Shown here: piece by piece, positions 10,945 to 36,210 of the stretch | How the letters are laid out: each line of letters begins with the position of its first letter | How positions within the stretch are numbered: the first letter of the stretch is position 1 | Origin: Candidatus Anderseniibacteriota bacterium | GTDB taxonomy: Bacteria; Patescibacteriota; Andersenbacteria; UBA10190 | Reading direction: 5' to 3' | Length of the DNA: 64,000 nt | Assembly (NCBI GenBank): GCA_021414205.1 | Contig: JAIOOW010000002.1 | Location: 340,171 to 404,170 of the forward strand | The notes under the pieces: model-generated | What the model was told of the DNA's origin: nothing | Database searches by the model: none | The model's input: only the letters and a program-made list of their open reading frames with translations | Program-made: the position numbers and the translations under genes

Positions 10945-10961
10945 AAAAATCTTTTTAAAAA

Positions 10962-19837: not shown

Positions 19838-19850
19838 AAATGTAAGTATA

Positions 19851-20876
19851 CTAAAAATTAAATAGTGGCGGTATTACGCCAAGCACGACCAAGCTATTGA
19901 GAAGATTAAATAGCGCAAACATAATCACGATAAGTCCGGCTGTTTTGAAGAAGATTCCAGATTTAGAGCTATTCGTAATGCTGAACGAGCTAAAGCTTAT
20001 AGCAGCCAGAACGGGAAGCGTGCCCAACGCAAATGCAAACATCGTGAAGCCACCTTGAAGGAAACTTCCGGTCGTAAGAGTATAGAGTTGCATTGATTGA
20101 GTGAATCCGCAGGGAAGAAAAAACGTTGCAATACCGACCAGCACCGGCGTGAAGCTATGATTGAACTTCGATACACCATGAGCATGCTTTGCAATAAACT
20201 TCGGCATAGATGGCTGAAGTTTCTTTGCCCACGGGAATACGTCGAGAAGATTTATACCAAGAGTGAGCATCACAATTCCAATCACGGCACTTAAAATAAA
20301 GGTGGCTGAAGTGTTGAGCGTAAAGGCAGAACCGATTGCACCAATGACTCCTCCGAGAATAAAGAATGAAACAAGGCGACCACCATGGAATAAAAGCTGT
20401 GGTTTTATTTTATCGCCCTCTTTTGCAAACGTTGCTGACATGGAAAGAACAAGTCCTCCGACTACTGCCATACACGTTGAAAGAGAGGCAATAATACCGA
20501 TGACGAATGCCGTACCGTACGTAACATCCCCGCCACTTACTAAATTCACAATTCCCATTTTCTGAAGCGCAATAAAAAGAAGTGCAAAGGCTAAAGCGAT
20601 AGGGACCGCAATCGTAAAGTCGTCCCATTTCACTACTTTCTGCTGCCTCTCAATAGAGACCGTGTACCCATGTGGCTTCAAGGGGACCGTAAGCTCTTCG
20701 GCGATTTGTTCAGGAGTCTTATCCCCGAAATCTCCCTTCACTTCAACGGAATGGTTTTTCAAACTCGATTTGGCATACGTAATATTTGGCAAATCTTTCA
20801 ATTCGCTTTCAGTTAAGAGAATGCAAGCATTGCAGTGCATGCCGTGTACGTGAAATGTATGTGTTTGAGCTGTCAT
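19851..20876 (-). CDS. HMA domain fused to DsbD_2/TauE-like multi-TM domain
   Basis: N-terminal HGMHCNACI (heavy-metal-associated) motif. Membrane domain carries conserved Cys residues ([19 protein letters not shown]). Confidence 0.6.
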
Positions 20877-23188
20877 AGTTTTTTCGCTTTAAGCCGTAAT
20901 GAATTGCCCACAACAGAAACACTTGAGAACGCCATCGCAAGCCCTGCAAATACAGGACTTAAGAGCCATCCAAAAACTGGATAAAATAACCCTCCGGCAA
21001 GTGGGATGCCAATGATGTTGTAAATAAATGCCCAAAAGAGGTTCTGCTTGATACCTCTCATAGTGAGCTTTGACAGTCGCACAGCTTTAACGAGTTTTGA
21101 AATGTCGCCGTGCAAGAGAGTGATGCCGGCTGTCTCAATCGCCACGTCTGTGCCGGTCCCCATCGCAATTCCCACATCAGCCTGAGCGAGAGCAGGAGCG
21201 TCATTGATACCGTCCCCAGCCATTGCCACAATGCGTCCGTCCCTCTGCAATTCCTGTATTTTCTTGAGCTTGTCTTCCGGAAGCACTTCAGCAACAACGT
21301 CATCAATCCCTACTTCTTTCGCAATAGCGTGAGCAGTATTCTTGTGATCGCCGGTTAGCATGACAACCTGTATGCCAAGTGCATGAAGACTTTTAACTGC
21401 TTCCACTGCCTCTGGTTTTATAGCATCCGCCACCATTACAACCCCAAGCACTTCATTCTTTGTCGCAAGAATAATAGGCGTTCTGCCTCGCATCGTTTCT
21501 GCTTCAATTTCACTTACATCAAAAGATAGTTTGAGGTCGGAAATGAGCTTTGTATTTCCTGCAAAGTATTCCGTATTTTCAATAGTTGCTTTCAGCCCCT
21601 TGCCCTTAATACTTTCAAAACCAGAAGCCACCATGAGAGAGATATTTTTTGTTTTTGCATATTCCAAAACTGCGTGAGCAATCGGATGTTCTGACTTGCT
21701 TTCAAGCGTCGCCAGAATAGAAACTATCTTTTCTTCCGTTAATGAAGAAGTATTTTTTACGCTTACCAATTCCGGCTTGCCTCTAGTTAGAGTGCCAGTC
21801 TTATCCACCACTACCGTAGTAACCTTATGAAGTTTTTCGAGAGTGGCAGCGTCCTTGATAAGGATTCCTTCTTTTGCTCCCTTGCCAACACCAACGATAA
21901 TTGCAGTAGGCGTTGCCAAGCCAAGGGCGCAGGGGCAGGCAATAACTAAGATGCCCACAAATGAGGTAAGACCATAGGAAAGGGCTTGAGAGAACCCAAG
22001 AAGGGGTGTGCCTATGAGAAGCCATATGCCGAGCGTAGCGAACGCAATCACTAACACGATGGGCACGAACACAGCCGAAATCTTATCAGCCAACGCCTGA
22101 ATTGGAGCACGGCTGCCTTGTGCGTCTTCAACCATTTTAATGATATGAGCAAGCAATGTCTCCGAGCCTACTTTTGTTGCTTTGAACGTAAACGAGCCAG
22201 TGGTATTGATAGTACCGGCAACCACAGTATCACCCACGGTTTTTTCTAGAGGCATAGATTCTCCGGTAACCATAGACTCATCAACAAATGACGAACCTTC
22301 GGAGATGGTCCCATCTACAGGAATACTGCTCCCTGGCTTGACTACGATGCTATCGCCATGAACTACTTGATTGATAGATATTTCTTGCTCCTTGCCGTCC
22401 CGAATAACAATAGCGGTTTTCGCCTGAAGATTCAGGAGTTTCTCTATGGCGTCCCCCGTCTTAATCTTCGCTTTGGCTTCCAAGTATTTGCCGAGCGTAA
22501 TGAATGCTATTACTACGATAGTTACGTCGTAATACGTATGCTCAACGTTAATAAACTGGCGAAGCGGTTCTTCAAAAGCTGTAATAATAAAACTATAGAG
22601 AAAGGCTACTGACGTACCGATGCCGATAAGAGTGTCCATGTTCGCCTTGCCGTAGCGGAGGAAACGATAGAAACCCAAGAGGTATGGCTTACCGATAACA
22701 AACAGTATGTACGTGGCAAAAATAGGCAATAGGTGATGCACGAACTCATTCATAATCGTAGACATTTTCGGCATTGCCCCAAATTGTGCAAGAATATCCC
22801 AGCTCATCACAATGATACTAAAAACAGCCAACGGGATAGCTATCATCACTTTTGCTCTCATATCAGCAACTTCAGCAAGCTTTTCTTGTTTTGATTGTCC
22901 AATACCAGTATGAGCGGCGTGGTCCTCGGCTGACATGCCCATTTCTTCGGCTGTCTTTCCTCCATGATTTGAGTGGTCAGGCATAACAAGCGAATATCCT
23001 AAAGGCTCAATCTTCTTGGAAAGTGCTTGGGGATTTGTTTTTGATGGGTCAAAAGAAACTTTTACTTTCTCTGTTCCGTAATTAGCTGATGCAGACTCTA
23101 CTCCTTCAACTTTCTTAAATGTTTTTTCGATGATAGACGAACATGAAGCGCAGTGCATTCCTTTTACGTTGTATGTTTGAGTGTGCAT
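20873..23188 (-). CDS. copA: Copper-translocating P1B-type ATPase
   Basis: N-terminal [12 protein letters not shown]; CPC ([15 protein letters not shown]); DKTGTLT; [10 protein letters not shown]. Overlaps the downstream gene by 4 nt. Confidence 0.85.
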
Positions 23189-23203
23189 ATATTTATATAG
23201 TTT

Positions 23204-23479
23204 CTATTTTCTTTTAAGTTTATAAACTTTGATAATCTCTTCTTTCGCTTTATCTTCTTGCCCAGAATGCATCTGATGACGCACGCAATGGTCCAAATGA
23301 TTCTCAAGAAGTAAATCTTCAACGTTTGATAATCCTTGCTTCACCGCTGATGTTTGCGTAATGACGTCTATGCAGTATGTATCGTTCATAATCATCTCTT
23401 GAAGACCACGCACTTGCCCTTCAAGAATCTTTAATCGGCGTACTACTCGTCCCTTATTTTTGTTATCCATGTATTCCAT
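23204..23479 (-). CDS. csoR: CsoR family metal-sensing transcriptional repressor
   Basis: RLKILEGQVRGLQEMIMNDTYCIDVITQTSAVKQGL...HLDHC is the CsoR/RcnR family core. Start trimmed to Met14 because the operator palindrome lies inside the longer ORF. Confidence 0.7.
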   Translation of the reverse strand: MEYMDNKNKGRVVRRLKILEGQVRGLQEMIMNDTYCIDVITQTSAVKQGLSNVEDLLLENHLDHCVRHQMHSGQEDKAKEEIIKVYKLKRK

Positions 23480-23487
23480 ATAAACAC

Positions 23488-23507
23488 TATACCCCCGAGG
23501 GGGTATA
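23488..23507. promoter_or_regulatory. Candidate CsoR operator (GC-rich pseudo-palindrome)
   Basis: tatacccccgagggggtata: perfect 9-bp arms tataccccc/gggggtata around a 2-nt centre. This resembles known CsoR operators (TACCC...GGGTA) and sits immediately upstream of csoR. Confidence 0.5.
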
Positions 23508-23540
23508 TATTCAACCATTGCGACAAATTATCCTTAACAA

Positions 23541-24467
23541 CTATAAGTCCCTTCCAACTTCCCCATTTATATAGTCGGGAATGTCTTTATTTTTAACTGT
23601 GATCGCCCCCTTTAAGACTTCAATATTGTTCTGTAACGGCAATTCATTATGTTTATCGGCGATGGACTTAGCTTTTTTTAGAAAAGCTGTTGCTGCACGA
23701 AACCTATAAGCCGTTTTAAGATGATTGGCTAAATTATAGTAAGTGTAACCCGCGGTTACATCATTCAACTTCTCAAAAATCATGGCTGCCTTCAAAGAAG
23801 CTTTTGTAGACTCATCAAGGAGCTTTTCGAGCATTCTCCCCTTAGCGCCAGGGAAAATTAGTAAGTTCTCAAAAAATGGATATCGCATTAATCTAAAATT
23901 TGCCCATAGAGCAGTACGAAAGCCACCGACCATACACTCCATCTTATACTGCATATAACGTGAACTTTCTACACTGGCTTTTGACATAAAAACATTACCG
24001 AGAGCTTCTTGATTTCCGCTCTCTTCCGCAAACGCCAAAGCCCGTGTTAACAAATCGCTAACTTCCTTTTCGCATTTCTCAATTTCACTAGTTAAAGTAA
24101 TGTACTTTTGTTTGTCTGCCTCGGTTGAAAATTCAATCCATCCCGAAGCAAGTTTAAGATTCTTTTGGTGATACCGTAGCAAGCTAATCTTATTCATTAA
24201 CAAATCAGCCTTTCTGCTCATAAAATTCGCTTGCCAATCTTTATCACCAAATCTTTGCGAGGTCTTTATTGCCTCCTCGCTAAACAAAAGTAATTTTTTA
24301 TTATCTTCAATCGGGTCCAATACACTCAGCGCAAGACCAATGGTTTGCAATCTTAATAATTTATCCTTAACCCTGCTTTCCAAATTTAATAATTGAGCGG
24401 CAGCTTCCTTGCGTTTACCCGCTTGAAGTAACATTAAAGCTTGCTGTAAATCATCTTTTTCTGACAT
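23541..24467 (-). CDS. Hypothetical all-helical protein, overlapping partner of the DUF4238 gene
   Basis: 308 aa; overlaps the upstream DUF4238 gene by 17 nt on the same strand. No family recognised. Confidence 0.45.
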   Translation of the reverse strand: MSEKDDLQQALMLLQAGKRKEAAAQLLNLESRVKDKLLRLQTIGLALSVLDPIEDNKKLLLFSEEAIKTSQRFGDKDWQANFMSRKADLLMNKISLLRYHQKNLKLASGWIEFSTEADKQKYITLTSEIEKCEKEVSDLLTRALAFAEESGNQEALGNVFMSKASVESSRYMQYKMECMVGGFRTALWANFRLMRYPFFENLLIFPGAKGRMLEKLLDESTKASLKAAMIFEKLNDVTAGYTYYNLANHLKTAYRFRAATAFLKKAKSIADKHNELPLQNNIEVLKGAITVKNKDIPDYINGEVGRDL

Positions 24468-25386
24468 AGCGAAACTTATATCTAAATCTTAATTCATCTA
24501 TCCACGTTCTAACCCTGCGCCTCACAACCTTAAAAAGAAAGATCGGATTAAGGGGGTAACGAAAGAACCAGATCATCTTTGTTTTTTTGCTGTGCGAAAC
24601 AAAGTATCTGTAGCAATGGCCAACAATCATTCTATTGGACTCATTAACTCTTTCATTTCCTAATCCAATATACCCACGCAAATTACTCCAACTCAAGCAA
24701 AGCATAATATCTGGCGATAGCGGCAAAGTCACTTGAACACTTTTCTGCCCCAATCCTGGACCATAAAATTTCTGCCACTGTAGATCGGGATTAAAAAGAT
24801 TACAGGGGTCATCCGAAGTAATAAACTTTGCAGACCCATTAGCACAAAGAAAGGCCACACCCATCTTCATCAATAATTCCGTAATATCTGGCAAAAGCCC
24901 AAAAACATTCAGTTTATGAGCATCTTGCTTAAATCTTTTTAGTCTTACCGACTCTTTGGGTGGCAAATTATGAGCTTTTTCAATAAACTCTGCTCGTTCT
25001 ATCAGTTCACTATAAAATTGCTCTAAATTATCCTTATGTCTCAAGGTTCTTTGAAGCATCACACTAACAAAAGCACACAAAATAATATGCTCCTCCTCAT
25101 TGAGAGGTAGTCTATTTTTTATTTTCGTCCGAAATACCGCAGCATACTTTCCCTCAAGACTAGCCAACGTTTCCTCTATTACGTAGTTTTTCTGTCCGTG
25201 AACTTTAAGAGTATACAAATCGTTGCTCGCCAAAGTGTTTTTTATTTTCTCTCTTCTTTGATTTTTTCCCTTTTTACTAAATATCCAAATAGATGGTTCT
25301 TTATTAGGGGGAATCGTTGGGTCCGCAAATTCCCTTAGGTAACACTGGGGCACATAGTGTTGTTTTGTTGGTTTATTCTTTGCCAT
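24451..25386 (-). CDS. DUF4238 family protein (family includes the reported single-gene anti-phage protein Rst_DUF4238)
   Basis: N-terminal HYVPQCYLREF matches the DUF4238 hallmark (HYxPQFYLRxF); 311 aa is within the typical family length. Confidence 0.55.
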   Translation of the reverse strand: MAKNKPTKQHYVPQCYLREFADPTIPPNKEPSIWIFSKKGKNQRREKIKNTLASNDLYTLKVHGQKNYVIEETLASLEGKYAAVFRTKIKNRLPLNEEEHIILCAFVSVMLQRTLRHKDNLEQFYSELIERAEFIEKAHNLPPKESVRLKRFKQDAHKLNVFGLLPDITELLMKMGVAFLCANGSAKFITSDDPCNLFNPDLQWQKFYGPGLGQKSVQVTLPLSPDIMLCLSWSNLRGYIGLGNERVNESNRMIVGHCYRYFVSHSKKTKMIWFFRYPLNPIFLFKVVRRRVRTWIDELRFRYKFRYVRKR

Positions 25387-25427: not shown

Positions 25428-26105
25428 TTACTTCGGCATCTTCCCACCGTTCGCTAAACAAGCCTTAACGGTAGAATATGGTGTGAATTTCTTCGTTTGA
25501 TCATAGTATTTAGTACCCTTAGCGTGACACAGGTTATTGACGCTCTTTTTCACCGCGGGAGCAGAGGTTGAGATAGCTGGTGCCTTGGCTGCCTGTACTG
25601 TATTGCCGTTACAAGAGGTTGGACTCCATAACCCTCGTTTCTTTGTTTGTGCGTCTTTTTGAGCTTTCTTAAAATCAGCCTGGTACTTATACGGAATGCT
25701 GTTGTAGGTATATTCATGAGCATATCCATCTAAGATCATCAGCTTTTCAAAGCTCGTTCCGTTTTCAAGATATACATACCGTAGTAATCTTCCGTATTTG
25801 TCTCGCTCTCCAGAAACAGGGTCAGATTCAAGACGAACTTTTTTACCTGTAAGAATCGTCTTTGCTTTGTTGGATGCTTCTTTCCCAAAACATTGGACTG
25901 GTTTTCTTGGATCAACAGTTTCCGGGGTATCCATTCCCACTATGCGGATACGTTCTGTCTTAGTACCAATCTGTACGTCTATAGTGTCGCCATCAATAAC
26001 TTTGGTTACAGGATAGAGAGAAGTTGGTTTTGTAGCAGCAAAGGCAGGTTGCTGCAAAGCAACGACTAGGAGAATTGATAGAGCAATTGGTTTGAGAAAT
26101 TTCAT
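25428..26105 (-). CDS. Secreted thermonuclease (SNase-like) with C-terminal Cys-containing extension
   Basis: Signal peptide, then VIDGDTIDV...RIRIVGMDTPET...GRLLRYVY (staphylococcal nuclease homolog motifs). Confidence 0.7.
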   Translation of the reverse strand: MKFLKPIALSILLVVALQQPAFAATKPTSLYPVTKVIDGDTIDVQIGTKTERIRIVGMDTPETVDPRKPVQCFGKEASNKAKTILTGKKVRLESDPVSGERDKYGRLLRYVYLENGTSFEKLMILDGYAHEYTYNSIPYKYQADFKKAQKDAQTKKRGLWSPTSCNGNTVQAAKAPAISTSAPAVKKSVNNLCHAKGTKYYDQTKKFTPYSTVKACLANGGKMPK

Positions 26106-26114: not shown

Positions 26115-27164
26115 TTATTTTCCAACTTTCTCAAACTCCGCAGTTGATCTTTCAAGCAACTTTGCTCCCTCACTTATTAATTGTGTTGCTCGCGTAAACT
26201 TAGATACACTTCTTTCATCAAAACCTTGACGCATTAGCGGCATCGCATCGGCGTATTTCTTGAGAGCCTGGAGCCACACGCTATGAAATTGCTTGTATTG
26301 CGCTGGCACTTCCATATCTCGAGCAACTTCATAGCTCTTTTCGATTATTACACTGAGTCCAGCCACTTGAGTTATTTCAGATTGAGTCCACGTAGAAAAA
26401 TCTGGCTTACTCACAAATATTGGACCGATAGTACTAAAGGATGTTTGCAACACGCCATTTAGCTTTATTATTTGCGACTTATATTCTTGGACTGGCTTAT
26501 TTGCTTCTTCCTCGGCCTTTCGCTTTTCTTCCTCTTGAGCGTTCTGCTGAGCTATACGTGCCTGTTCCTTCTTTTCTTCCTCCGTAAAAGTACGATTGAA
26601 AGTTAGGCTTATCGTTGTATTCTTTTTTCCATTTTCTGCAAGAATGCTAATCGTGTTGCTTTCATGAGGCAGTGGTATGGATTGCTCAAAGGTACCATCA
26701 CTAGCAACCGTGACATTAGTTCCTCGCACTTTAATTGTTGCACCCTTAGGCACTACTCTACCTTTAAGTATTACATCCTTAGCTTGGAATGATTGATTAT
26801 CCGCTGGTTCTAGAATTTGAATACTTGGCGCCCGATTTGCATATGCCAACGAGCCATTGATAGCAGCAAAGACAACAATAATTCCTGCTGTAGCATACAG
26901 TTTATACTTCTTTGAAATAGTAATTCTCTTCCAGAACCAAAGCGCTGCAAGCAATAAAACAGGAATGGCAAGATACCAATAGATTAGAACAAAGATTAAG
27001 GAAACAACGCCAAGAATTAAACCAATAAGATTACGCTTTTGTTTACCAGACATCTTTTTAGGAGCGGGCTTTGCTGGAACCTGAGAAAAGTGTAAACGTG
27101 CCTCTGCGCGTATCTGCTCTTCTTCGACTATTTTCTTTCTCTCTTCTTCGGTGAGTGATGACAT
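26115..27164 (-). CDS. Membrane protein (3 TM) with extracytoplasmic beta-rich and coiled-coil domains
   Basis: TM helices at residues 45-110, then an EEEKKEQARIAQQNAQEEEKRKAEEEA coiled coil. Sits 9 nt upstream of the nuclease gene. Confidence 0.45.
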   Translation of the reverse strand: MSSLTEEERKKIVEEEQIRAEARLHFSQVPAKPAPKKMSGKQKRNLIGLILGVVSLIFVLIYWYLAIPVLLLAALWFWKRITISKKYKLYATAGIIVVFAAINGSLAYANRAPSIQILEPADNQSFQAKDVILKGRVVPKGATIKVRGTNVTVASDGTFEQSIPLPHESNTISILAENGKKNTTISLTFNRTFTEEEKKEQARIAQQNAQEEEKRKAEEEANKPVQEYKSQIIKLNGVLQTSFSTIGPIFVSKPDFSTWTQSEITQVAGLSVIIEKSYEVARDMEVPAQYKQFHSVWLQALKKYADAMPLMRQGFDERSVSKFTRATQLISEGAKLLERSTAEFEKVGK

Positions 27165-27259
27165 ACTGTGTATGCGTTAGCAATTAAAGGTTGCTAGCGG
27201 ATAACACAAAGCCCACCGCTAGCTGGTGGGGTAAACCACCCATACCCGTTTCCGGATAT

Positions 27260-27309
27260 GACGTCATCAACGTTAGCTGAACGATGGGTTCAGTGTTGAT
27301 GACGTTTTG
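27260..27309 (+). other. Strong stem-loop followed by TTTT in a divergent intergenic region
   Basis: acgtcatcaacgttagctgaac / gttcagtgttgatgacgt arms (11 + 6 bp) then tttt. A second hairpin cccacc-gctagct-ggtggg lies at 27212-27230. Confidence 0.3.
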
Positions 27310-27500
27310 ATGCCATGCCGCCGCTAGAAGCGTGGTTTAGGCAATTAAGTTGTACCCCTATTTGAACTTAAAAAGCATAAAAATGCAACGAGACGCAGGT
27401 AAATTCCACCCCGCCACTCACTATATATTGAGACAAATTACTTTGCCTGATAGGCTGATAAAACAGGCTTTACCACCTGAAATGAATATTAAATTACAAT

Positions 27501-29813
27501 ATGCCAGGTCCAGAACATCCTATAGAACCTATTACTCTAAGCCTCGCCCGTGCAAGAGATTTGGGCATTGCTAAGAAAAAGGAAAGTTACGAACTTATAC
27601 CCGAGAAAATTGAGGAGCGGGGAAAGCAGATAAAAATAACAGCTCACATCGATGGCAGAGAGACTACTCTTACCTTTGCCAAAGACAAACTAACTGAACG
27701 GCAGTGTAGCCTCATCGCTCTTTGCTATGTTCGCATTGGACGAGGCTACGATGAGTCGGCAAATAAAAACGCTAAAGAATATCTCACCAAGGCGATTAAA
27801 GAAGAAATAGGAGCTAGACCAAAAAGAGAACCGCAGGATTGGCTCCCTTATTTCCTTATTGCTGCTTGCGACCTTGAAATTGAAGGCTTAGGGAATGTGG
27901 CAATTAAAATGTACCACTTTCTGAAACAACCCGAACAACTAAGCCACGATTTTTATGTCCATCTTTACGAAAAAGAAAGTAACCCTCTACGAAAACTCAA
28001 CGTGGCAAAAATTGCCAGTGAATACTACCCCCACAGCACCTATTTTATTGCGTTAGTTGCAGAACACTTGGCTTCCGAAGGCAAGCAAATCGAGTGCCTT
28101 CGTTACCTGATTGAGAAGAAAACCTTGATTCCTTCACAGGAATGGCAACAGGCAAATAGTCTGCGTTTTATGATATTCAATTGCTTTCTGGGACAGGGAA
28201 AGTTTGAGGAAGCAATACAAGAAGCGAGTACGCCCCTATACGGTTACAGCAATGATGAGGATTACGCTCCTATTCTCCGAGCAATTGCCCTCGGCAGACA
28301 GGGCGATTGGCAAGACGCCACTAATATTTTGGAAACAGTTGTGCATACAAGCAAGGGTTCAGGTCCCGTTATTCCCGTCGCTTTGTACTACCTACTTAAA
28401 TGCTATATCAACGCTCAAAACATCCTTGGGATAAAAGGAATAGCCGAGACACTAAGCTTGGATGAGATGGAACTAATGCCCTTTGAAGCACCCTTCTACT
28501 TTATAGATTCCCAGGAGATAATTGATACCCTTACATATGCCACTAGTAGTAAGAAGCTAGCCATTGATGAAATGACCAGAGCGAAATTAAAAGGAATACT
28601 TGCTTACAAACTCTATCGTCAACTACCTAATCCATATACCTACGACTACCCTCGCAAACTTACTTCAGTGGAGCAAAAAAGCCTGGAAAGAGCCTTGCAG
28701 CTAACAAAAGACGCATTGGAATATTTTCCTGCCAAATATTTTTTCAATGCACTTTGCTCAAACCTCTTTTGCCACAAGAGAGAATTTGACACGGGGATGC
28801 AGTATAAACTGAGGGCAATAGCGGCGACACAGGAGGATTGGGAAAAGGAGGGACTCTATATGGATGTGGGATTTGAGGATTGCAGTTCATCGTATCTTCA
28901 CACGTATGCTCACAATGTTAAGACTGCGTTTGCCATGATTGGCAGGTCCCCCAAAAACTACCTAGAAAATGGAGACTTTGAATTTGATATTAAACAGCTA
29001 TGGAAGAGAAAACTATATAGCCAAATTGCAGGGTTATACGAATATGTGAAGGAATACACTGATGAGTGGAATGAGGCAAAACAACTAGAAGAAAGCTCAA
29101 TGCTCTTTGAAATTGCCTACTCACTTAGTGAGTGCGAAGCCTTGGATGAAGCACGTGAAGTATATAGACTTTATATCAAGACCGAGGGCGAAACATCAGC
29201 AGTATTAAATAACCTGGCTATTATTTATGAGCAGACGGGGAATTTGGCAAAGGCAAAAGAAATAATTAAAAAAGCACATAAGTTGGACCCCGATGACGAT
29301 ACGGCTTCAAGGAATTATCAAAGGCTTTTCAAAACTCAGAAAAAAGTATCAAGCCGAAAAGATATTCTCGCTCCTGAAAAAACGGAGATGCCCATAGATA
29401 AAGCCGCAATTTCTCAACCGCTTGATGTGAGAATTATTTCTATGCCCATAGTCCAATTTCAGGACGCTGATAGCCCGCAAGCCAACCACCTAAAACGGTC
29501 TATCGCCTTTCGCAATAATGGAGACTTACTTCACAAAGGAGAATGGCTAGCCAGATTTACACCAGGAACCTCCGAATACTACTTTGCCCTTATACTCTGG
29601 GACCATTTCAATGAACCCGTCAGTCATGAAGATATTTTTGACTATTGCAAGAAAAAGATTCGTAAGGCGTACAGCGAAACGGCACAGTCTTTTTGTAATA
29701 AGAGAAAGAGCAATATTATCAAGGCATTACCAAAAGCAGTAGCAGGGAAAATATTGGTTAGTACAAAGACTGTCGAGGGATTAAACGCATATCAAATGGT
29801 CAGTCCCGACTAA
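27501..29813 (+). CDS. Large (770 aa) alpha-helical/TPR-like hypothetical protein
   Basis: Long ORF with repetitive helical segments; no catalytic motif recognised. Confidence 0.45.
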   Translation: MPGPEHPIEPITLSLARARDLGIAKKKESYELIPEKIEERGKQIKITAHIDGRETTLTFAKDKLTERQCSLIALCYVRIGRGYDESANKNAKEYLTKAIKEEIGARPKREPQDWLPYFLIAACDLEIEGLGNVAIKMYHFLKQPEQLSHDFYVHLYEKESNPLRKLNVAKIASEYYPHSTYFIALVAEHLASEGKQIECLRYLIEKKTLIPSQEWQQANSLRFMIFNCFLGQGKFEEAIQEASTPLYGYSNDEDYAPILRAIALGRQGDWQDATNILETVVHTSKGSGPVIPVALYYLLKCYINAQNILGIKGIAETLSLDEMELMPFEAPFYFIDSQEIIDTLTYATSSKKLAIDEMTRAKLKGILAYKLYRQLPNPYTYDYPRKLTSVEQKSLERALQLTKDALEYFPAKYFFNALCSNLFCHKREFDTGMQYKLRAIAATQEDWEKEGLYMDVGFEDCSSSYLHTYAHNVKTAFAMIGRSPKNYLENGDFEFDIKQLWKRKLYSQIAGLYEYVKEYTDEWNEAKQLEESSMLFEIAYSLSECEALDEAREVYRLYIKTEGETSAVLNNLAIIYEQTGNLAKAKEIIKKAHKLDPDDDTASRNYQRLFKTQKKVSSRKDILAPEKTEMPIDKAAISQPLDVRIISMPIVQFQDADSPQANHLKRSIAFRNNGDLLHKGEWLARFTPGTSEYYFALILWDHFNEPVSHEDIFDYCKKKIRKAYSETAQSFCNKRKSNIIKALPKAVAGKILVSTKTVEGLNAYQMVSPD

Positions 29814-29836
29814 ATCAGAATTTCGTCAGAATTTTT

Positions 29837-29890
29837 GGAGATACTTAATATCTCCCCTGGTGCAAGCTGGCTACTACAAGCCAGTTTTTT
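29837..29890 (+). terminator. Rho-independent terminator (two hairpins + T6)
   Basis: ggagatacttaatatctcc hairpin, then ctggc-tactacaa-gccag followed by tttttt. Lies just after the 770-aa ORF stop. Confidence 0.4.
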
Positions 29891-30157
29891 ATGCAATCAA
29901 ATTACATTACAAACGAAACAAACAGTCGCTTTTCCACTTATGACTTGGGATTAGCTGCGGCATTGATAACGCACGGTTTTGAGCTTGCGGAAATGGACCG
30001 AGCTAATCCTAAGAGGGTCTTATTTACATTCCAGCGTAGCCATAGTGAGTTAGAAAAAACAATCAATGAATACTTGACCGACCAACTCCGCTTACCAGCC
30101 CGCAGGTTTTTTGATGACGTTCGCGCATTAAAAAATCGTCTCCATGACGCGAGGTAA
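29891..30157 (+). CDS. DUF5659 domain protein (phage/mobile-element associated)
   Basis: FSTYDLGLAAALITHGFELAEMDRANPKRVLFTFQRS matches the DUF5659 pattern. Confidence 0.45.
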   Translation: MQSNYITNETNSRFSTYDLGLAAALITHGFELAEMDRANPKRVLFTFQRSHSELEKTINEYLTDQLRLPARRFFDDVRALKNRLHDAR

Positions 30158-30160
30158 CTT

Positions 30161-30343
30161 ATGGAGTTCACAGACCAACAACTTAGTCAATTTCAGCAGC
30201 TCTATTTCAAACATTTCCATGAAAAAATTACTAAAGAAAAAGCTGCTGCAAAAGGAGAACGTCTTATCCAGCTAGTCAAAACCGTCTACGAGTCCAAAGC
30301 AGCTAGACACAAACAGCAGGAACGCCAACAAATACCTACTTAA
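30161..30343 (+). CDS. Small hypothetical protein
   Basis: 60-aa ORF directly following the DUF5659 gene. Confidence 0.25.
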   Translation: MEFTDQQLSQFQQLYFKHFHEKITKEKAAAKGERLIQLVKTVYESKAARHKQQERQQIPT

Positions 30344-30359
30344 AAAAAATTAAAAAACT

Positions 30360-30626
30360 ATGAATAATCCATTCAAATACATCAATCAAAAAGGCATCGA
30401 GAGCTATAGAAGCCCGATCGTCTACTTTATTACAGAAGAAATGGTCCAAGATTTTGCCGAGGCAAACTATGACCGTAGGCTGACAGAAGAAGAAGTTGCC
30501 GAACTTTTTTACGGCTTCTGTGAAAATGACCAAAAACTATATTCGTTTATGGATGCGGCCGTTGAGTATGCCATTGAAGTGACCAAGGGGAACAAGGGAG
30601 AAAATCATGAAAAGATAACTCAATAA
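30360..30626 (+). CDS. Small acidic hypothetical protein
   Basis: 88-aa ORF immediately upstream of the primase gene. Confidence 0.3.
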   Translation: MNNPFKYINQKGIESYRSPIVYFITEEMVQDFAEANYDRRLTEEEVAELFYGFCENDQKLYSFMDAAVEYAIEVTKGNKGENHEKITQ

Positions 30627-30633
30627 AAATCCT

Positions 30634-32790
30634 ATGAAAAAACAAGAAATTACTATTAAAGAATACTTAGCCCAGAAAGGGGTTGAGTTTCAGGAACGTG
30701 GCGGCGAGCTTATCACTGCCTGCTTATTCAACGGCTGCGACGATGACAGTAGAACCAATGAACGGCATCTATACTTTAATGCTGAGGATGGGGTCTACCA
30801 ATGCAAAAAGTGTGACGAACGAGGCAATATCATAAGCCTGCGAAAGTACTTTGGAGATGAGCAGGAAAAGCCATCCACTACAAAACCAAAGTCACAACAT
30901 GGTCCCCGATTTACTGACATCCTTGTAAGCCAATCTCACGAAGCAATGCCAGATAACATACGCCAATACCTTAACAAGCGAGGTATCCCTGATACGGTTA
31001 TAGCAGATAGTAAACTGGGCTATGGCAATTTTTACGGCAAAAACTGGATTACGATTCCCATTAAAGACGAGACAGGTGAATACGCATATTTCAAATTACG
31101 ACAGGACCCTAATGAAGGAAATGAAAAGATAACATACCCTAAAGGTGAGGCTCAAATTTATGAGTGGGATACTCTTAAGCGTACTGACGCTCCTTTGATT
31201 ATTTGTGAGGGTGAATTGGACCGCCTACTGCTAGTTGGCAAAGGTGTGAACGCTATCACTTCTACTCACGGAGCAGGCACGTTTAAGCAAGAGTGGGTAC
31301 CCCAGCTTACGGCTTTTCAGAAAATCTATGTCTGTTTTGACCAAGACGAACCAGGGCAAAAAGGAGCCGAGCGAGTCGCTAAGATGTTAGACAATGCTGG
31401 AATTACTGAAGTTTATTTTGTGACCTTACCAGACGAAGTTGGTGAGGGAGGAGATGTAACAGACTATTTCACTAAGTTCGGCGGCACTGTTGATGACCTG
31501 CTCGGCAAATACGCTAAGCGGTATCCCGAACGAATTGACTCTACCCAATTTCAACCAATGACCACCGCTGACTTAAATGCAGTATTGGGATTGACCATCA
31601 AAAAAGACGAGGTAAATAAGGCAGTGACATTTCAGTGTATGCTATCCGCCTTTACCGAAAACAACCAGTTCAACATCAGCTTTAATGCTCCCAGCTCCAC
31701 AGGCAAAAGCTACATCCCCTTGGAAGTATCCACGCTCTTTCCCGCAGACGATTTAATGAAACTAGGCAATGCCAGTCCGACTGCTTTCTTTCACGAACGA
31801 GGTGATTATGACAAAGAAAAGAATACGATTACGGTGGACCTATCCCGAAAAATCATTGTCTTTCTTGATATGCCCAACAATGCCTTATTGGAACGCCTAC
31901 GGTCCCTTTTGTCACACGACGAAAAGATGATTGAGAGCAAAATCACTGACAAGAATCAGAAGGGCGGCAACCGTACTAAGACAGTGATTATTAAGGGTTT
32001 CCCTGCGGTAGTATTCTGTTCGGCAGGCTTAAAAATTGATGAGCAAGAAGGAACCCGCTTTATACTCCTTTCCCCAGAGATAAGCCAAGACAAATTGCGT
32101 GAGGGTATAAACCAGCGACTGCGAAAGGAATCTAACGAACAAGAGTTTCGGGAGTGGCTAGGGAGCGATCCAACTCGCCAATTGCTAAAGTTGCGCATAC
32201 AAGCTATCAAACAAGAAAAAATCGCCGAGATTATTGTGCCAGACGATGAGAAAGAAACTATCCGTCAGTATTTCTTAGAGGGTAAGGACGTTTTGAAACC
32301 ACGTCACCAAAGAGACATTGGCAGGTTGATTGGACTAACCAAAACCTTTGCCCTTCTTAATTGTTGGTTTCGTCAGAGAAAGGGAAGAACCATATACGCC
32401 ACAATGGATGATGTGCAAGAGGCTACACGCCTATGGGATAAGATTGCAGAGAGCCAAGAGCATAATCTTCCTCCTTATGTCTATGACCTATACAAAGACG
32501 TGATATTGCCCGCCTGGAAGGAAAAGAATGAGGATAAAGTAATGCCAGATGAATGGGTAGGTGTGAGCCAGCAGGAGATTATGCGTAAGCACTATACGGC
32601 TTATGGTACGCATCTTGCCGAATGGCAACTGCGGCAACAAATCCTGCCGATGATAGAAACAGCGGGACTGATTATCCGAGAGAAAGATGACAAGGACAGG
32701 CGGCATATTCTTGTCTGCCCCACCCTCAAACTCAATATCAATGAAAGCGAGGAATATAGTGAGCCACCCCGTGGGGTAACAGATAAATAG
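30634..32790 (+). CDS. Mobile-element replication protein: zinc-ribbon + TOPRIM primase fused to C-terminal P-loop NTPase domain
   Basis: N-terminal CxxC...CxxC (ITACLFNGCDDD...YQCKKCDERG), TOPRIM core (LIICEGELDRL...VCFDQDEPGQKGAE), then Walker A-like NAPSSTGKSY and hhhhD (KIIVFLDM). Confidence 0.65.
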   Translation: MKKQEITIKEYLAQKGVEFQERGGELITACLFNGCDDDSRTNERHLYFNAEDGVYQCKKCDERGNIISLRKYFGDEQEKPSTTKPKSQHGPRFTDILVSQSHEAMPDNIRQYLNKRGIPDTVIADSKLGYGNFYGKNWITIPIKDETGEYAYFKLRQDPNEGNEKITYPKGEAQIYEWDTLKRTDAPLIICEGELDRLLLVGKGVNAITSTHGAGTFKQEWVPQLTAFQKIYVCFDQDEPGQKGAERVAKMLDNAGITEVYFVTLPDEVGEGGDVTDYFTKFGGTVDDLLGKYAKRYPERIDSTQFQPMTTADLNAVLGLTIKKDEVNKAVTFQCMLSAFTENNQFNISFNAPSSTGKSYIPLEVSTLFPADDLMKLGNASPTAFFHERGDYDKEKNTITVDLSRKIIVFLDMPNNALLERLRSLLSHDEKMIESKITDKNQKGGNRTKTVIIKGFPAVVFCSAGLKIDEQEGTRFILLSPEISQDKLREGINQRLRKESNEQEFREWLGSDPTRQLLKLRIQAIKQEKIAEIIVPDDEKETIRQYFLEGKDVLKPRHQRDIGRLIGLTKTFALLNCWFRQRKGRTIYATMDDVQEATRLWDKIAESQEHNLPPYVYDLYKDVILPAWKEKNEDKVMPDEWVGVSQQEIMRKHYTAYGTHLAEWQLRQQILPMIETAGLIIREKDDKDRRHILVCPTLKLNINESEEYSEPPRGVTDK

Positions 32791-32842
32791 GGAAAATTAG
32801 CGCAAATTAGTACATAATCCTTAATAATTTCGGCAAAATTCT

Positions 32843-33529
32843 ATGAGCAACACATCACCAAAACAAATAACGGCTAACCAACAAAACGCCCAGAAAAGTA
32901 CTGGACCAAAAACTCCTGAAGGGAAAGCTGTTTCCAAGAACAACGCCCTTAAGCACGGACTACTGACACGAGACATGGTATTACCAACAGAAGATGCGGA
33001 AGTGCTAACGGAGCTAACTACGGAGGTATGGAAGGAATTACAGCCTGTTGGTCAACTAGAGCAATTTTTAGTTGAGCGCATTGTCGCAAATATGTGGCGT
33101 ATTAAAAGGTTGCACCGTATTGAGACAGGGTTATTTACCACTGAAAGCGTGGACCAGCTTGCGGGACGTATTCGTGGTCAGGCACGAGAATTTGAACATA
33201 AAGAGTCTCTGTTTCCGAATTTGGAAATGGAGACAACAACCATTACTGACGAGAAAAAACACGCCGAGATAATCGCTAAAGCCGAAGCACTGGAAAAGAC
33301 GTGGGATTCAGACATTACCAGTATAAGTAGTGCCTTTCGGAGCGATGCCGTAGACAATGACGTACTGGCAAAAATAATCCGTTACGAAGTTTCTCTGGAG
33401 CGTAGCTTCACTAAGGCTTTACATGAACTGCAACGCTTACAAGCCAAGCGAAATGACGATACGACACCCCCTCCTGTCGCCGTTGATATTGATATTTCAG
33501 GTGATAAACCAAATGGGTTCGTTTCGTAA
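32843..33529 (+). CDS. Hypothetical protein
   Basis: 228 aa, helical; no family recognised. Confidence 0.35.
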   Translation: MSNTSPKQITANQQNAQKSTGPKTPEGKAVSKNNALKHGLLTRDMVLPTEDAEVLTELTTEVWKELQPVGQLEQFLVERIVANMWRIKRLHRIETGLFTTESVDQLAGRIRGQAREFEHKESLFPNLEMETTTITDEKKHAEIIAKAEALEKTWDSDITSISSAFRSDAVDNDVLAKIIRYEVSLERSFTKALHELQRLQAKRNDDTTPPPVAVDIDISGDKPNGFVS

Positions 33530-33670
33530 AATATATCGTAGAAAACCGATATTTTCCGATATATCAGGTATAAACGGTCAATATAGGCAAAAGAGGTCAG
33601 TTTATGAAGCATTTTCCGTGCAAATCAACGCACAATCTTTAATAATTTCGGCGGAATAATTACCAACACT

Positions 33671-34267
33671 ATGGCACGAGCAAAAGCGGAAACATCTAAC
33701 TCACTCAAAATATCTTGGCTTAAAAAACAAGGATATTTTCCAAAAGGAGAATCTTGGCGTAGCGGTAATGTTACGTGGACTCTTGGTATGAGCGAGAATA
33801 AAAGTAGCATCGGCATTGATATTACGGCGGGCATGACCGAGGAAGAAAACTATATCCGACTGCACTACACTTATACGGACTACTGGACCAAAGAGAAGTC
33901 AGATATGAACTATAAGATTCAACTGGAAACCACACCCTGTCATTTTGGTGGCGTGCGTTATTGGTTTATCTGTCCTCTATCCAAGAATGGCCAATATTGC
34001 GGACGACGAGTGGGAGTTATTTACAACATCGGCAAATGGTTTGGCTGCCGTCATTGCGGAGATATTGCCTATCAAGCCCAGTTTGAGGGTGGCAACTTCC
34101 GTATGGGTTCAGTTACCGAACCAGATGTTGAAAAAGCATTCAGTGAAGCAAAAACTCACTACTATAACGGCAAGCCGACAAGAAAATATAAACGCTACCT
34201 AAGACTACGGCAAAAGATGAATAATTCATGGATTCGAGCGGCTTCAAGGTTTGGCAATATCTTCTAA
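33671..34267 (+). CDS. Hypothetical protein with C-terminal Cys-rich zinc-ribbon-like motif
   Basis: CHFGGVRYWFICP...CGRRV...CRHCGD. Confidence 0.35.
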   Translation: MARAKAETSNSLKISWLKKQGYFPKGESWRSGNVTWTLGMSENKSSIGIDITAGMTEEENYIRLHYTYTDYWTKEKSDMNYKIQLETTPCHFGGVRYWFICPLSKNGQYCGRRVGVIYNIGKWFGCRHCGDIAYQAQFEGGNFRMGSVTEPDVEKAFSEAKTHYYNGKPTRKYKRYLRLRQKMNNSWIRAASRFGNIF

Positions 34268-34285
34268 TAATGGCATTATGAACAC

Positions 34286-34392
34286 GTTGACCCAGTTGAA
34301 GATTAAACCCGTGAGATTTTTTTATAGGCTTGTGGGCTGCAAAGGGCGGTCTGCCAGAAGCCTATCCTCACGGAAAAAGCAACTGGGTCAAC
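34286..34392. repeat. 107-bp imperfect palindrome (nested inverted repeats) upstream of the recombinase gene
   Basis: Outer arms gttgacccagttg / caactgggtcaac (13 bp, perfect). Inner pairs ccgtgag/ctcacgg and ataggctt/aagcctat. Confidence 0.4.
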
Positions 34393-34422
34393 CAGACCGT
34401 CCTTTTATGTTGATAAATTACT

Positions 34423-36150
34423 ATGATTGACCCAAAAATTGTTCAAAAAAGCTATATCTGCACTTACGCTCGTAAGTCCGAAGAGGACAAGTATAAGCAG
34501 GTCCAGTCTATTCCCGACCAGCTCAAAATCAATCAACAGATTGCAGATTTTCACGAAATAAAAATTCCTGCCAAGCATGTGTACATGGAAGAAATGTCCG
34601 CGGGTGAACCTGGCAGACCAGTATTCAACCAGCTCATAGAAACAATACAAAAGAACACTCATACAATTCTCGTCTGCTGGCACTTTAATCGTCTAACACG
34701 TAACCCAATAGACGAAGGAGTACTCAAATGGTTATTACAGAAAGGCAAGCTAACCATCATTACCCCCAATCAAGTCTTTGATCAAAATACCAACGTCATT
34801 ATCACATCAGTTGAAGGAGCGCAGGGCAATCAATTTCTTATTGAATTAAGCCGCAACGTAATACGTGGCTTAAATTCTAAGCGAGCAAAAGGTGTTCCCA
34901 GTGGCGTAGCACCTGCTGGATACCGTAACGGTGGGACCGAGAAAGGCAATAAATGGTTTGAGCCAGATGATGGAGACCCGAATCGCTTTCTGCTAGTTCA
35001 AGATGCACTCAAGCTAGTCATAAACGGAATAGAACCAATGGACGCTTTCCGCAGATTAAATGACGATTGGAAATTCCTGACAATTAAAAGAAAGAGACAC
35101 GGTGGGACTCCTATCTCAAAATCTGTATGGTACGAGATGCTAAGAAACCCTATCTACTGCGGACAATTTATTGCACTTGATGAGTGGCATGAAGTTAAGG
35201 ACCCTCATTTCAAGCCAATGATTACGGAAGAAGAATATTGGGAGCTGCAATCAAAACTAGGAGTTAAGGGACGGACAAGACCAAAGCTACAAGATGAAGA
35301 GCAAGCTGCCTTTTTACAAGCTCTAACCTGTGGCGAGTGTGGCAATAAAATGAGTCGGGATCGTAAACGACAGATACGCTGTCTCTGTAAGCATAAATAC
35401 AGTGCCTTGCATCGTGATACTTGCCCCATGTGTGGTCTTCATGAATCAAAGGTCCCGTCTGATCGCAAACATACCTATGACTTCTATTTCTGTCCTACGG
35501 GCAAGAAAAAGCAGTGTTCTCAACCAACTATCCCTACAGAGGCAGTAGAAAGCCAAATTGCCACTGTCCTTGATAGCGTTAGCATCCCCCAAGAATTTAT
35601 TGACTGGGCTATGGCTTACCTGGAAACGAAAAACGATGAGGTAATTGTTAGCCGAGAGGCTAGACTGCAATCTTTGCAGAAGGCTTATAAAGAAAGTGAG
35701 GAAGAATTGAATCGCATGAACCGTTTATACATAAAGGGCGGTTTTGAGCACGAAGGTGGCGATGAGGAGTATCAAAAAATGAAACGGGAGCAACTCTCTA
35801 AAAAGAAAGCACTGCAAAAACAGTTGAGCGAATTTGATACCTCTGGTGATAATTGGAGAGAGCGAACGGAGGGAGGGTACGATTTCTGTAAAGAGGCACT
35901 GACTGAATTTACACTCGGAAGCTACCGAACCAAGCGTGGCGTCCTACTTCATATCTACCAAAAAGCCACTGTGCAGGCAGATAAGGTCCGAATAGACATA
36001 GAGCTACCATTCCAATTCATGAAAAATAAGATGCATAACCTTAAGACCAAGTTTGGACTTACCGAACCAGGCAAAATTGAAGAATTGTTGAGAGATACGG
36101 GCAAACAAGAGGATATTGATGCCGTAAAAAAGTTTTGGCTCCCCGGGTAG
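34423..36150 (+). CDS. Large serine recombinase (resolvase/invertase N-domain + recombinase domain + zinc ribbon)
   Basis: Catalytic-Ser motif YARKSEEDK, then FNRLTRN (DRLxR equivalent); CGECGNKMSR zinc ribbon; coiled-coil C-terminus. Stop codon overlaps the tRNA-Asn 3' end. Confidence 0.75.
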   Translation: MIDPKIVQKSYICTYARKSEEDKYKQVQSIPDQLKINQQIADFHEIKIPAKHVYMEEMSAGEPGRPVFNQLIETIQKNTHTILVCWHFNRLTRNPIDEGVLKWLLQKGKLTIITPNQVFDQNTNVIITSVEGAQGNQFLIELSRNVIRGLNSKRAKGVPSGVAPAGYRNGGTEKGNKWFEPDDGDPNRFLLVQDALKLVINGIEPMDAFRRLNDDWKFLTIKRKRHGGTPISKSVWYEMLRNPIYCGQFIALDEWHEVKDPHFKPMITEEEYWELQSKLGVKGRTRPKLQDEEQAAFLQALTCGECGNKMSRDRKRQIRCLCKHKYSALHRDTCPMCGLHESKVPSDRKHTYDFYFCPTGKKKQCSQPTIPTEAVESQIATVLDSVSIPQEFIDWAMAYLETKNDEVIVSREARLQSLQKAYKESEEELNRMNRLYIKGGFEHEGGDEEYQKMKREQLSKKKALQKQLSEFDTSGDNWRERTEGGYDFCKEALTEFTLGSYRTKRGVLLHIYQKATVQADKVRIDIELPFQFMKNKMHNLKTKFGLTEPGKIEELLRDTGKQEDIDAVKKFWLPG

Positions 36151-36210
36151 GATTCGAACCTACGACCATCGCCTTAACAGGGCGTTGCTCTGCCGCTGAG
36201 CTACCAGGGA
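36136..36210 (-). tRNA. tRNA-Asn (anticodon GTT), CCA encoded
   Basis: Folded by hand. Acceptor TCCCTGG/CCGGGGA (one G-U), D-arm GCTC/GAGC, anticodon loop CTGTTAA with U33 and A37, T-arm GTAGG-TTCGAAT-CCTAC, discriminator G, then CCA. Confidence 0.8.

Follow-up and report, generated by a model that had tools for sequence, protein, structure and literature searches.

We analyzed a 64,000-nt stretch of the metagenome-assembled genome of Candidatus Anderseniibacteriota bacterium (Andersenbacteria, Patescibacteria; contig JAIOOW010000002.1, positions 340,171 to 404,170; hereafter the window), in which the gene for a large serine recombinase (LSR) runs into a gene for tRNA-Asn(GTT). The region upstream of this junction probably represents an integrative element placed at the 3′ end of the host tRNA-Asn by its own LSR. 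We assign this reading, including the model of the attachment (att) sites described below, a probability of about three in four on the basis of sequence comparison. A sequence-only reading of the window had already proposed an integrated element at this tRNA, and the proposal is supported by the synteny with a related locus (L085), by the variable occupancy of the site in related genomes and by the association of 56 out of 80 homologous LSR loci with tRNA genes. The features at the junction are given below with the strand in parentheses.

36136-36210 (−): host tRNA-Asn(GTT) with encoded CCA (ARAGORN; Rfam tRNA, 66.3 bits)
34423-36150 (+): LSR, 575 aa (Pfam, PHROG integrase, SprA/YokA structures and conserved residues)
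36136-36150: 15-nt overlap of the LSR open reading frame (ORF) with the tRNA 3′ end, encoding W-L-P-G-stop, as read from the sequence
36108-36160: inferred attR consisting of P arm, crossover and B′ arm, from LSR half-site geometry and relatives

The C-terminus of the LSR is ...DAVKKFWLPG*, and its last codons on the + strand, TGG CTC CCC GGG TAG, are antisense to the tRNA. They cover the CCA (36136-36138), the discriminator (36139), the 3′ strand of the acceptor stem (36140-36146) and the first bases of the T-stem. The sequence-only reading correctly gave the recombinase 575 aa and a TAG overlapping the tRNA, but the stop codon (36148-36150) sits in the T-stem and not in the acceptor region.

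The recombinase is a member of the serine family by several measures. Pfam detects the Resolvase domain (PF00239) at residues 14-157 with an E value of 5e-13, and the scores for Recombinase (PF07508; 20.4 bits, cut-off 21.1) and Zn_ribbon_recom (PF13408; 25.0 bits, cut-off 25.3) fall just below the curated cut-offs; homologues have both the Recombinase and the zinc-ribbon domains on record. The PHROG 'integrase' profile matches residues 11-535 (E 3e-49), and the solved structures of SPbeta SprA/YokA also match (E 8e-11), with residues 12-320 aligned to SprA. The catalytic motif YARKS (S19) is intact. Among 19 LSR homologues, Y15, R17, K18 and S19 are nearly invariant, while R65, R90 and R93 and the cysteine residues C303, C306, C357 and C365 are invariant. 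No tyrosine integrase or Phage_integrase domain was found among the scanned ORFs of 14.9-36 kb, in which the only recombinase belongs to the serine family, and there is no second or small partner recombinase gene in 27.5-36.15 kb. The LSR scores only 18 bits on NCBIfam CcrB (cut-off 900) and 28 bits on CcrA (cut-off 700), and hence is not CcrB-like.

To place the overlap in the context of the family, 80 homologous LSR loci were taken from one-genome-per-species GTDB contigs, and each ORF was extended to its stop. An antisense tRNA is located at the end of the LSR ORF in 56 loci (70%), whereas six ORFs run off the contig end and 18 loci, mostly from phyla outside the candidate phyla radiation (CPR), have no tRNA there. 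The stop codon mostly lies 9-176 nt inside the tRNA; three Phe loci stop 10 nt short of the tRNA and L043 63 nt short. Among the target tRNAs are those for Asn, Asp, His, Trp, Phe, Gln, Gly, Glu, Arg, Ser, Tyr and Thr; which type is used follows the LSR subclade. This overlap between LSR and tRNA genes is far beyond chance.

The homologues (31-79% identical) end, for example, in WLPGSDSNRQPTGYM, WLRGWDSNPRPMD or WRRRKDSNLR, and a tail of WLPGSDSNRQP is also found. These tails are translated antisense tRNA, because TGG complements the CCA end and GAT TCG AAC corresponds to the T loop. When no tRNA is present at this position, the ORFs extend 4 to ~40 codons past the conserved W (TGG), as in L085, which ends in WLPN*, and in L170 and the first recombinase of L172, which have longer tails. 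The LSR reading frame relative to the tRNA varies between clades, and therefore the overlap looks to be a by-product of the ORF crossing the att site to the next stop rather than selected coding.

The host site was compared among genomes by scanning with the neighboring RpoD protein. The order of dnaG, rpoD, zero to three genes and tRNA-Asn is common in this lineage. The site holds related LSR elements with other cargo in L003 (LSR 79% identical), L083/L084, L171/L172 and L173, and prophage-like elements harboring a 431-434-aa serine recombinase, a terminase and a ParB-methyltransferase in L087 and L168. There is no recombinase in the available flank of tRNA-Asn in L093, L106, L113 and L128; the tRNA is followed by a plain terminator in the latter three, and by a short hairpin and then housekeeping genes in L093. 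These gene orders show that the tRNA-Asn beside rpoD-dnaG belongs to the host and serves as a hot spot for insertions.

The tRNA-Asn genes at this site differ in several other respects. Those beside the prophage-like elements have no encoded CCA (...GGGGAGC followed by AT...; L087 14294-14366 and L168 4224-4296), whereas CCA is encoded at recombinase-free sites such as those of L093, L094, L106 and L113. The extreme end of this tRNA may thus be a point of DNA exchange for a second lineage of serine recombinases as well. In L172, two related LSRs ~9 kb apart (1-885 and 10001-11746) are arranged in tandem at one tRNA-Asn. The outer LSR ends in an attP-like manner, and the inner LSR ends at the tRNA and has its own attL at 1591. 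In related Patescibacteria, a group I intron of 229-283 nt is found in the anticodon loop of tRNA-Asn(GTT) (Rfam Intron_gpI, 71-74 bits; ARAGORN -i). Such intron-bearing genes are located at 3946-4227 in L003, at 11748-12032 in L172, at 9004-9361 in L171 and also in L145, and their 3′ ends are still adjoined by serine-recombinase elements. The tRNA-Thr(tgt) genes of L097, L107 and L116 contain introns of 226-559 nt.

The genes upstream of the LSR form a compact module on the + strand, listed here from left to right.

27501-29813 (+): TPR protein, 770 aa, an element gene
29891-30157 (+): DUF5659 protein, with whose gene the compact conserved module begins (Pfam E 6e-10; homologues in 19 related loci)
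30161-30343 (+): small ORF, 60 aa, kept beside DUF5659 in nine related loci
30360-30626 (+): orphan ORF, 88 aa, without a homologue in related elements
30634-32790 (+): primase (zinc finger and Toprim) fused to a P-loop domain, 718 aa, the replication module
32843-33529 (+): conserved element protein, 228 aa, with homologues in L085, L003, L024, L039, L064 and L006
33671-34267 (+): Cys-rich, zinc-ribbon-like protein, 198 aa, directly upstream of the LSR

The primase/P-loop fusion, DUF5659 and orphan ORFs noticed from the sequence alone were all confirmed by the ORFs and by the Pfam and PHROG scans. The primase matches Pfam Toprim_2 and the PHROG DNA primase and primase/helicase, carries the Walker A motif SSTGKS, and has homologues of 53-57% identity in 13 loci. 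The gene order of L085 is the same as that of the window, consisting of TPR, DUF5659-like, small ORF, primase, two conserved ORFs and an LSR that is 56% identical. The TPR protein is 40% identical over 608 aa to its counterpart at the same position in L085, and a weaker homologue is located upstream of DUF5659 in L017. Because L085 shares the whole order from TPR to LSR, the TPR gene, which probably has a cargo or accessory function, belongs to the element. The start at 29820 given by the sequence-only reading is therefore too far to the right, and the element spans from ~27.35/27.5 to 36.14 kb, about 8.8 kb.

The compact module of DUF5659, the 60-aa ORF, primase, the 228-aa and 198-aa proteins and LSR recurs at tRNA-Asp in L024, tRNA-Arg in L028, tRNA-Gln in L064 and tRNA-His in L039. 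Its content and positions show that the module recurs as a mobile unit, beside a variety of tRNA genes and in many Patescibacteria. The LSRs of these four loci are only 29-33% identical to that of the window. The primase, at 53-57% identity in these loci, and the 198-aa protein are well kept while the LSR is divergent, which is the pattern expected if a replication core joins integrases of varied specificity. The 198-aa protein, which had no match in Pfam, PHROG or NCBIfam, is 78% identical in L085, 63-64% in L024, L028 and L064, and 39% in L039; the range across elements (63-78%) is above that of the recombinases (29-56%). No capsid, terminase or conjugation genes were found in the element by the Pfam and PHROG scans. 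Its predicted gene content is like that of a satellite or of a small element that integrates and replicates itself.

The att sites were approached through the relatives. Copies of the tRNA end are located 8.9-11.5 kb upstream in seven loci (L009, L022, L062, L066, L070, L079 and L082). A stricter search for the P′ arm, in which ≥8 nt identical to the tRNA 3′ end had to be followed by an outward-displaced T-loop-like motif, returned four matches, at 8.1-10.7 kb in L172, L012, L082 and L039, while the control strand gave no match. The four matches are all intergenic, and the upstream copy keeps 8-10 nt of the tRNA end, with the T-loop-like motif offset outward by +4 to +5 bp relative to the tRNA. 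The attR of L172 reads GTG GCTCGCGGGG TCGGA TTCGAACC, and its attL reads AAA GCTCGCGGGG CAGGACGAC TTCCGAACC. Neither the LSR gene of L170 nor the first one of L172 adjoins a tRNA; both read into TGGCTC...GGACGATTTTCGAAC, which by its sequence is the same arm in an unrecombined, attP-like form. No P′ site was found in L173, which was fetched as a closer relative.

The attL/attR identity blocks of the relatives extend over −9..+5, −12..+6, −1..+9, −1..+7, 0..+8, +2..+11, −11..+13 and −11..+17, and intersect at +2..+5 from the tRNA 3′ end, i.e. tRNA nucleotides 71-74. A terminator-like hairpin, apparently the one that originally followed the tRNA, is located on the host (outer) side of attL in L012, L082 and L062. 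Work on the LI/A118 integrase has established that the outer motif, that of the zinc-ribbon domain, lies ~5 bp further from the center in attP than in attB. The P′ motif of the relatives, ~5 bp farther out, matches this difference between the LSR half-sites.

Two of the relatives have further features around their ends. In L012, a sense-oriented GTTCGAATCCCAGCGC occupies 3468-3490, ~60 nt beyond attL as mapped; it could mark where a different tRNA gene has its 3′ end, or be one more remnant. The L085 element, the closest syntenic relative, lies between GC-rich (55-59%) flanks (2770-2800 and 11740-11850) without a tRNA after the LSR, where TGGCTCCCG is followed by AATTAAAACCC. This context could represent an attP that has not recombined and is carried by a larger replicon; alternatively, the site may be secondary or the contig chimeric. 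At the left GC boundary of L085, and again 21-33 nt before TGG, there is a 12/13 direct repeat, GAWTCAGACACAA, with ~0.4 such matches expected by chance.

Taken over to the window, these sites suggest how the LSR would have inserted its element against the 3′ end of tRNA-Asn. The attP, as in the relatives, would overlap the 3′ end of the LSR gene, so that the C-terminal coding region (IDAVKKFW) would serve as the P arm. The B′ half of attB would be the acceptor and T arm of the tRNA including GGATTCGAAC, and the 3′ part of the tRNA would now form the B′ arm of attR, in which the T-loop sequence (GATTCGAAC, + strand) would be the motif recognized at the outer position. The P′ arm of the element would repeat the terminal 8-10 nt of the tRNA, with a motif resembling the T loop ~5 bp farther from the center. 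A 2-bp crossover is predicted near tRNA nucleotides 71-74, within ~36138-36141 (GCTC) of the window. The tRNA would then stay essentially native, the element giving only the terminal CA or CCA, and a long repeat would not be needed. In the integrated LSR gene, the final three or four codons together with the stop would be host DNA, and the C-terminal tail of the protein would differ between the integrated and excised states. Reads in which GGTTCGAATCCTACCCGGGGAG is followed by anything other than CCAAAACTTTTTTACGG would indicate the empty attB, and GATGCCGTAAAAAAGTTTTGGC running into non-tRNA sequence would indicate the attP of the circle.

The same scheme may extend to the family, in that a mostly patescibacterial clade of LSRs would use the T-loop/acceptor end of tRNAs as the B′ half of attB, with a P′ arm that mimics the tRNA and a C-terminal tail that is swapped upon integration. 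We consider this generalization tentative, with odds just short of even. Retargeting would require small changes only, which would explain the ≥11 tRNA specificities.

The left end of the element must be sought next to a gene cassette of different origin.

27344-27500: zone bound to hold the left end of the element, between the LOOT RNA and the TPR start
27225-27343 (−): LOOT RNA, Rfam RF03000, full length (75.7 bits versus a gathering score of 46.4)
26115-27164 (−): GlucoB-like protein (Pfam), with 58-59% cassette identity to the L168 and L169 genes
25428-26105 (−): SNase (Pfam), with 58-59% cassette identity to the L168 and L169 genes
24451-25386: DUF4238 block, beside the LSR element

Between the TPR gene and its left neighbor, the intergenic space 27165-27500 contains the LOOT RNA, which is located upstream of and co-oriented with the GlucoB-like and SNase genes. 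From this arrangement, LOOT may be a leader or small RNA of a mobile nuclease and surface-protein cassette. The LOOT/GlucoB-like/SNase cassette is also present in L168 (7680-10159) and L169, inside a prophage-like tRNA-Asn element, where it is placed between the 434-aa serine recombinase and the terminase. In L168, the tRNA-Asn (4224-4296) and the LOOT RNA (from 7680) are ~3.4 kb apart, with the 434-aa recombinase and two other genes between them. In the window, the cassette directly abuts the TPR-to-LSR module, and the genes separating it from the tRNA in L168 are missing. When the left-flank protein was used to search for an empty site, the flank turned out to belong to another mobile element. 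The simplest reading of the left flank is a tandem or accreted array at tRNA-Asn, which was later rearranged with loss of the attL junction. The DUF4238 block, which had been suspected to lie on or beside a mobile island, is indeed beside the element but is not demonstrably on it, being separated by the LOOT/GlucoB-like/SNase cassette.

Several candidates for a left att site were discarded. The only 9-mer match to the tRNA end, TTGGCTCCC at 27839, lies inside the TPR ORF at a position homologous in L085, and is a chance repeat. The candidate attL at 27334-27375 (GGTTTAGGC/AATTAAG...TTTGAAC) contains GGTTTAGGCA, which is the conserved 5′ end of the LOOT RNA, and its similarity to the sequence downstream of L085 is not above background. 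The hairpin at 27258-27303 and the TTGATG(A/C)CG motifs, considered as recombinase sites, are stems of the LOOT RNA. No meaningful similarity was obtained when 27150-27510 of the window was aligned with the region upstream of the L085 TPR gene, and the P′ consensus GGACGAYTTYCGAAC has only chance-level matches in the window.

Farther left, a copper cluster on the − strand (17431-23518) encodes two P-type ATPases, a cupredoxin-like protein, an HMA-DsbD_2 membrane protein and a CsoR-type repressor, and directly adjoins a low-GC block at 23-27 kb; it may be island cargo. A SAM riboswitch (RF00162, 51.8 bits) was detected at 12764-12872 (−) within the intergenic region 12704-12981, directly upstream of a minus-strand 133-aa ORF (12302-12703) with a weak Cupin_1 match.

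Three observations concern the junction itself. The acceptor stem of the window tRNA-Asn has a U5.G68 wobble (5′ TCCCTGG, 3′ CCGGGGA; 36140-36146 and 36204-36210). Irregular stems also occur in other occupied tRNAs, namely U4.G69 in L087, U6.G67 in L031, a T-stem mismatch in L047 and a wobble in L021, and the stems of the recombinase-free tRNA-Asn sites examined are fully paired; the irregularities may be the trace of hybrid tRNAs or mere natural variation. In the Logan assembly of SRR15633504, the sample from which the window comes, one contig ends at 36167 and the next starts at 36155, overlapping by 13 nt inside the tRNA (L001 and L002). This break could come from strains that differ at the att site or from k-mers common to other tRNA-Asn genes. 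Finally, an exact 14-nt inverted match links 30502-30515 in the 88-aa ORF with 36121-36134 in the P-arm region (AACTTTTTTACGGC / GCCGTAAAAAAGTT); chance would give ~0.007 matches of this kind, although the sequence is rich in A/T.

A number of results weigh against integration by the resident LSR as modeled here. The 25-nt tRNA end has no displaced match with ≤3 mismatches in the whole window. The partial direct repeat of the tRNA 3′ end expected to the left by the sequence-only reading did not turn up at 1-36 kb by blastn (word size 7), gapped local alignment or searches with 6-8-mers. No attL or P′ motif is recognizable within 1-36 kb or in 27344-27500, and an inverted copy of the P arm is not significant in the window (36 kb) or in 15 relatives. 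Because the tRNA fragment, the P′ motif and the inverted P arm are all missing, the integration boundaries of the window copy are undemonstrated. Comparison with related genomes provided the recombinase-free sites of L093, L106, L113 and L128, but no empty site from the same species was obtained. A scan of IMG/VR for free viral forms yielded no relatives, and no circular form was seen; the current mobility of the element is unproven. As for the crossover, its position and the 5-bp rule are based on four to five relatives that are 30-45% identical, and some of the underlying 8-10-nt seeds are expected by chance. Longer repeats in some relatives, to +17 in L022, +24 in L066 and +40 in L009 (tRNA-His 3′ half), and the stem mismatches or wobbles of L047, L021, L031 and the window fit a deeper crossover. 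The missing repeat leaves attL undefined, yet does not refute integration, since the shared cores of serine recombinases are short.

These points bear on the alternatives to different degrees. A crossover deep in the tRNA, in the T or anticodon loop as in the classical mechanism of integration into tRNA genes, would mean that the element supplies a substantial 3′ part of the tRNA, like the islands of tyrosine integrases and as put forward for the DsiB islands of Dehalococcoides, and that the 15-nt overlap is element DNA. The identity blocks of L022 and L066, the upstream tRNA-His half of L009 and the irregular stems, such as a hybrid tRNA would give, speak for it, as does L085, which is tRNA-like to +9 and then diverges. 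A T-loop crossover has also been inferred for a serine recombinase at a transfer-messenger RNA (tmRNA) gene (McMurdie 2011; PMC3146451). However, most loci have no long repeat, the copies in L172, L012, L082 and L039 keep 8-10 nt plus a displaced motif and look like half-sites rather than displaced tRNA ends, and the attL of L062 has no tRNA similarity beyond +5. By the general geometry of LSR sites, moreover, the T-loop motif would be too near the center of such a crossover to serve the zinc-ribbon domain. We therefore regard a deep crossover as distinctly unlikely. Still less credit, indeed next to none, goes to the idea that no integration at the tRNA occurred, and that the LSR and tRNA are adjacent by chance or the tRNA-Asn is borne by the element. 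CPR genomes are compact with common gene overlaps, and attL was not found in the window. Nevertheless, 70% of the homologous loci are alike over ≥11 tRNA species, and tRNA-Asn stays beside rpoD-dnaG in recombinase-free genomes; the variable occupancy of this rpoD-linked gene, including none, rules out an element-borne tRNA or chance adjacency.

The other two alternatives concern the fate and extent of the element. With no left site, and with a neighboring cassette from another tRNA-Asn element, the window copy may have lost attL and may no longer excise. It is quite possible, if on the doubtful side, that it is a fixed remnant, i.e. an immobile island whose left att site was lost, for example by deletion between tandem elements, and whose overlap is a fossil. 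The failure to find attL or P′ in 36 kb and the abutting cassette, devoid of the genes that intervene in L168, would be explained in this way. On the other hand, none of the eight element ORFs is disrupted, the catalytic motif is conserved, the Logan assembly break inside the tRNA could reflect population heterogeneity, and the P′ arm of this subclade may differ from that of L172, whose LSR is 44% identical. A larger composite island that includes LOOT, GlucoB-like, SNase, DUF4238 and perhaps the copper genes, with attL farther left or outside the window, appears unlikely. In its favor, GlucoB-like genes are divergently oriented beside serine-recombinase modules in the window, L167 and L168, three contexts independent of one another, the GC content is lower (0.38-0.40) over 23-27 kb, and CsoR/CopA genes are frequent island cargo. 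However, where the ends of family members have been mapped, the length is 8-11.5 kb, L085 has only TPR to LSR in common with the window and differs in the gene content and GC of its flanks, and an attL-like site is absent throughout 1-36 kb. Insertion of an ~8.8-kb element at the tRNA-Asn 3′ end by its own LSR thus remains our preferred reading.

The window LSR appears to have the domain order of Resolvase, Recombinase and zinc ribbon in common with the integrases of phiC31, Bxb1, A118/LI and SPbeta (SprA). In its relatives, as in the large serine integrases of phages and integrative and conjugative elements (ICEs), the cores are short and the outer motif appears to lie ~5 bp farther out in P′ than in B′. 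However, characterized LSRs of phages and ICEs target protein-coding or intergenic sites, whereas the window LSR is found at a tRNA 3′ end with an attP that would overlap its own gene end. In a mycobacterial survey, the sites of serine integrases (Int-S) were within ORFs and had cores of 5-8 bp, and those of tyrosine integrases were at tRNAs (PMC8092301).

The islands of the Islander type, which are formed by tyrosine integrases, likewise combine an intact tRNA with an adjacent integrase gene, and the site of the window is also variably occupied in related genomes. Hot spots with accretion and switching of tRNA identity along the integrase phylogeny are further common traits. The differences are that the recombinase of the window belongs to the unrelated serine family, and that the window has no displaced tRNA fragment; such fragments are present in several relatives, and the cores shared in relatives of the window element are 8-15 nt only.

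A precedent by target is the LSR DsiB at the tmRNA 3′ end in the ssrA islands of Dehalococcoides, where tandem islands accumulate (McMurdie et al., 2011; PMC3146451). In a related marine-fosmid element, the ssrA repeat is embedded in dsiB (PMC3146451). The DsiB system pairs a CcrB-like recombinase with the small DsiA, its direct repeat measures 20 bp and its crossover has been inferred to lie in the T loop (PMC3146451), whereas the window LSR is not CcrB-like, lacks a small recombinase as partner and is directed at genuine tRNA genes. In the rumA-targeting serine integrases of streptococcal ICEs, the core lies in the integrase 3′ end and the C-termini are exchanged (Ambroset et al., 2016; PMC4701971), and the same logic of C-terminal exchange would apply to the LSR ORF entering the tRNA. 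However, rumA is a protein-coding target that is altered, and those elements are conjugative while the window element has a primase module only. Among the Prochlorococcus tycheposons and cryptic tRNA-linked elements, 27/937 carry an LSR (Hackl et al., bioRxiv 10.1101/2020.12.28.424599). Tycheposons resemble the window element in being small and tRNA-associated with replication genes (primase or helicase) and cargo, but they are overwhelmingly based on tyrosine recombinases and differ in host phylum and gene content. We found no description of LSR att sites or of an ORF-tRNA overlap in Hackl et al. (bioRxiv 10.1101/2020.12.28.424599), and no account of this patescibacterial LSR family or of a tRNA-mimicking P′ arm in the open-access literature.

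Integration into tRNA genes is usually held as a hallmark of tyrosine integrases, and the mobile elements of Patescibacteria/CPR are poorly charted. Island finders such as Islander are expressly limited to the tyrosine integrase family (PMC4383910). An LSR family targeting tRNA 3′ ends would mean that such elements have been systematically missed, mostly in Patescibacteria/CPR. For the organism studied here, the 23-36 kb region beside tRNA-Asn is a zone of mobile-element accretion, which affects how the DUF4238, nuclease and copper-resistance genes are read. The interest of the finding lies in the family-wide rule more than in the window copy, which is possibly immobilized. The inferred rule describes how an LSR could recognize an RNA gene that is left undamaged, with the T arm as a half-site, a 5-bp offset between attP and attB, and the crossover at the discriminator. 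If true, it would constitute a serine-recombinase counterpart of the tRNA targeting by tyrosine integrases, based on compact integrases with natural sites in every genome, and the short natural attB sites may be usable for genome engineering.

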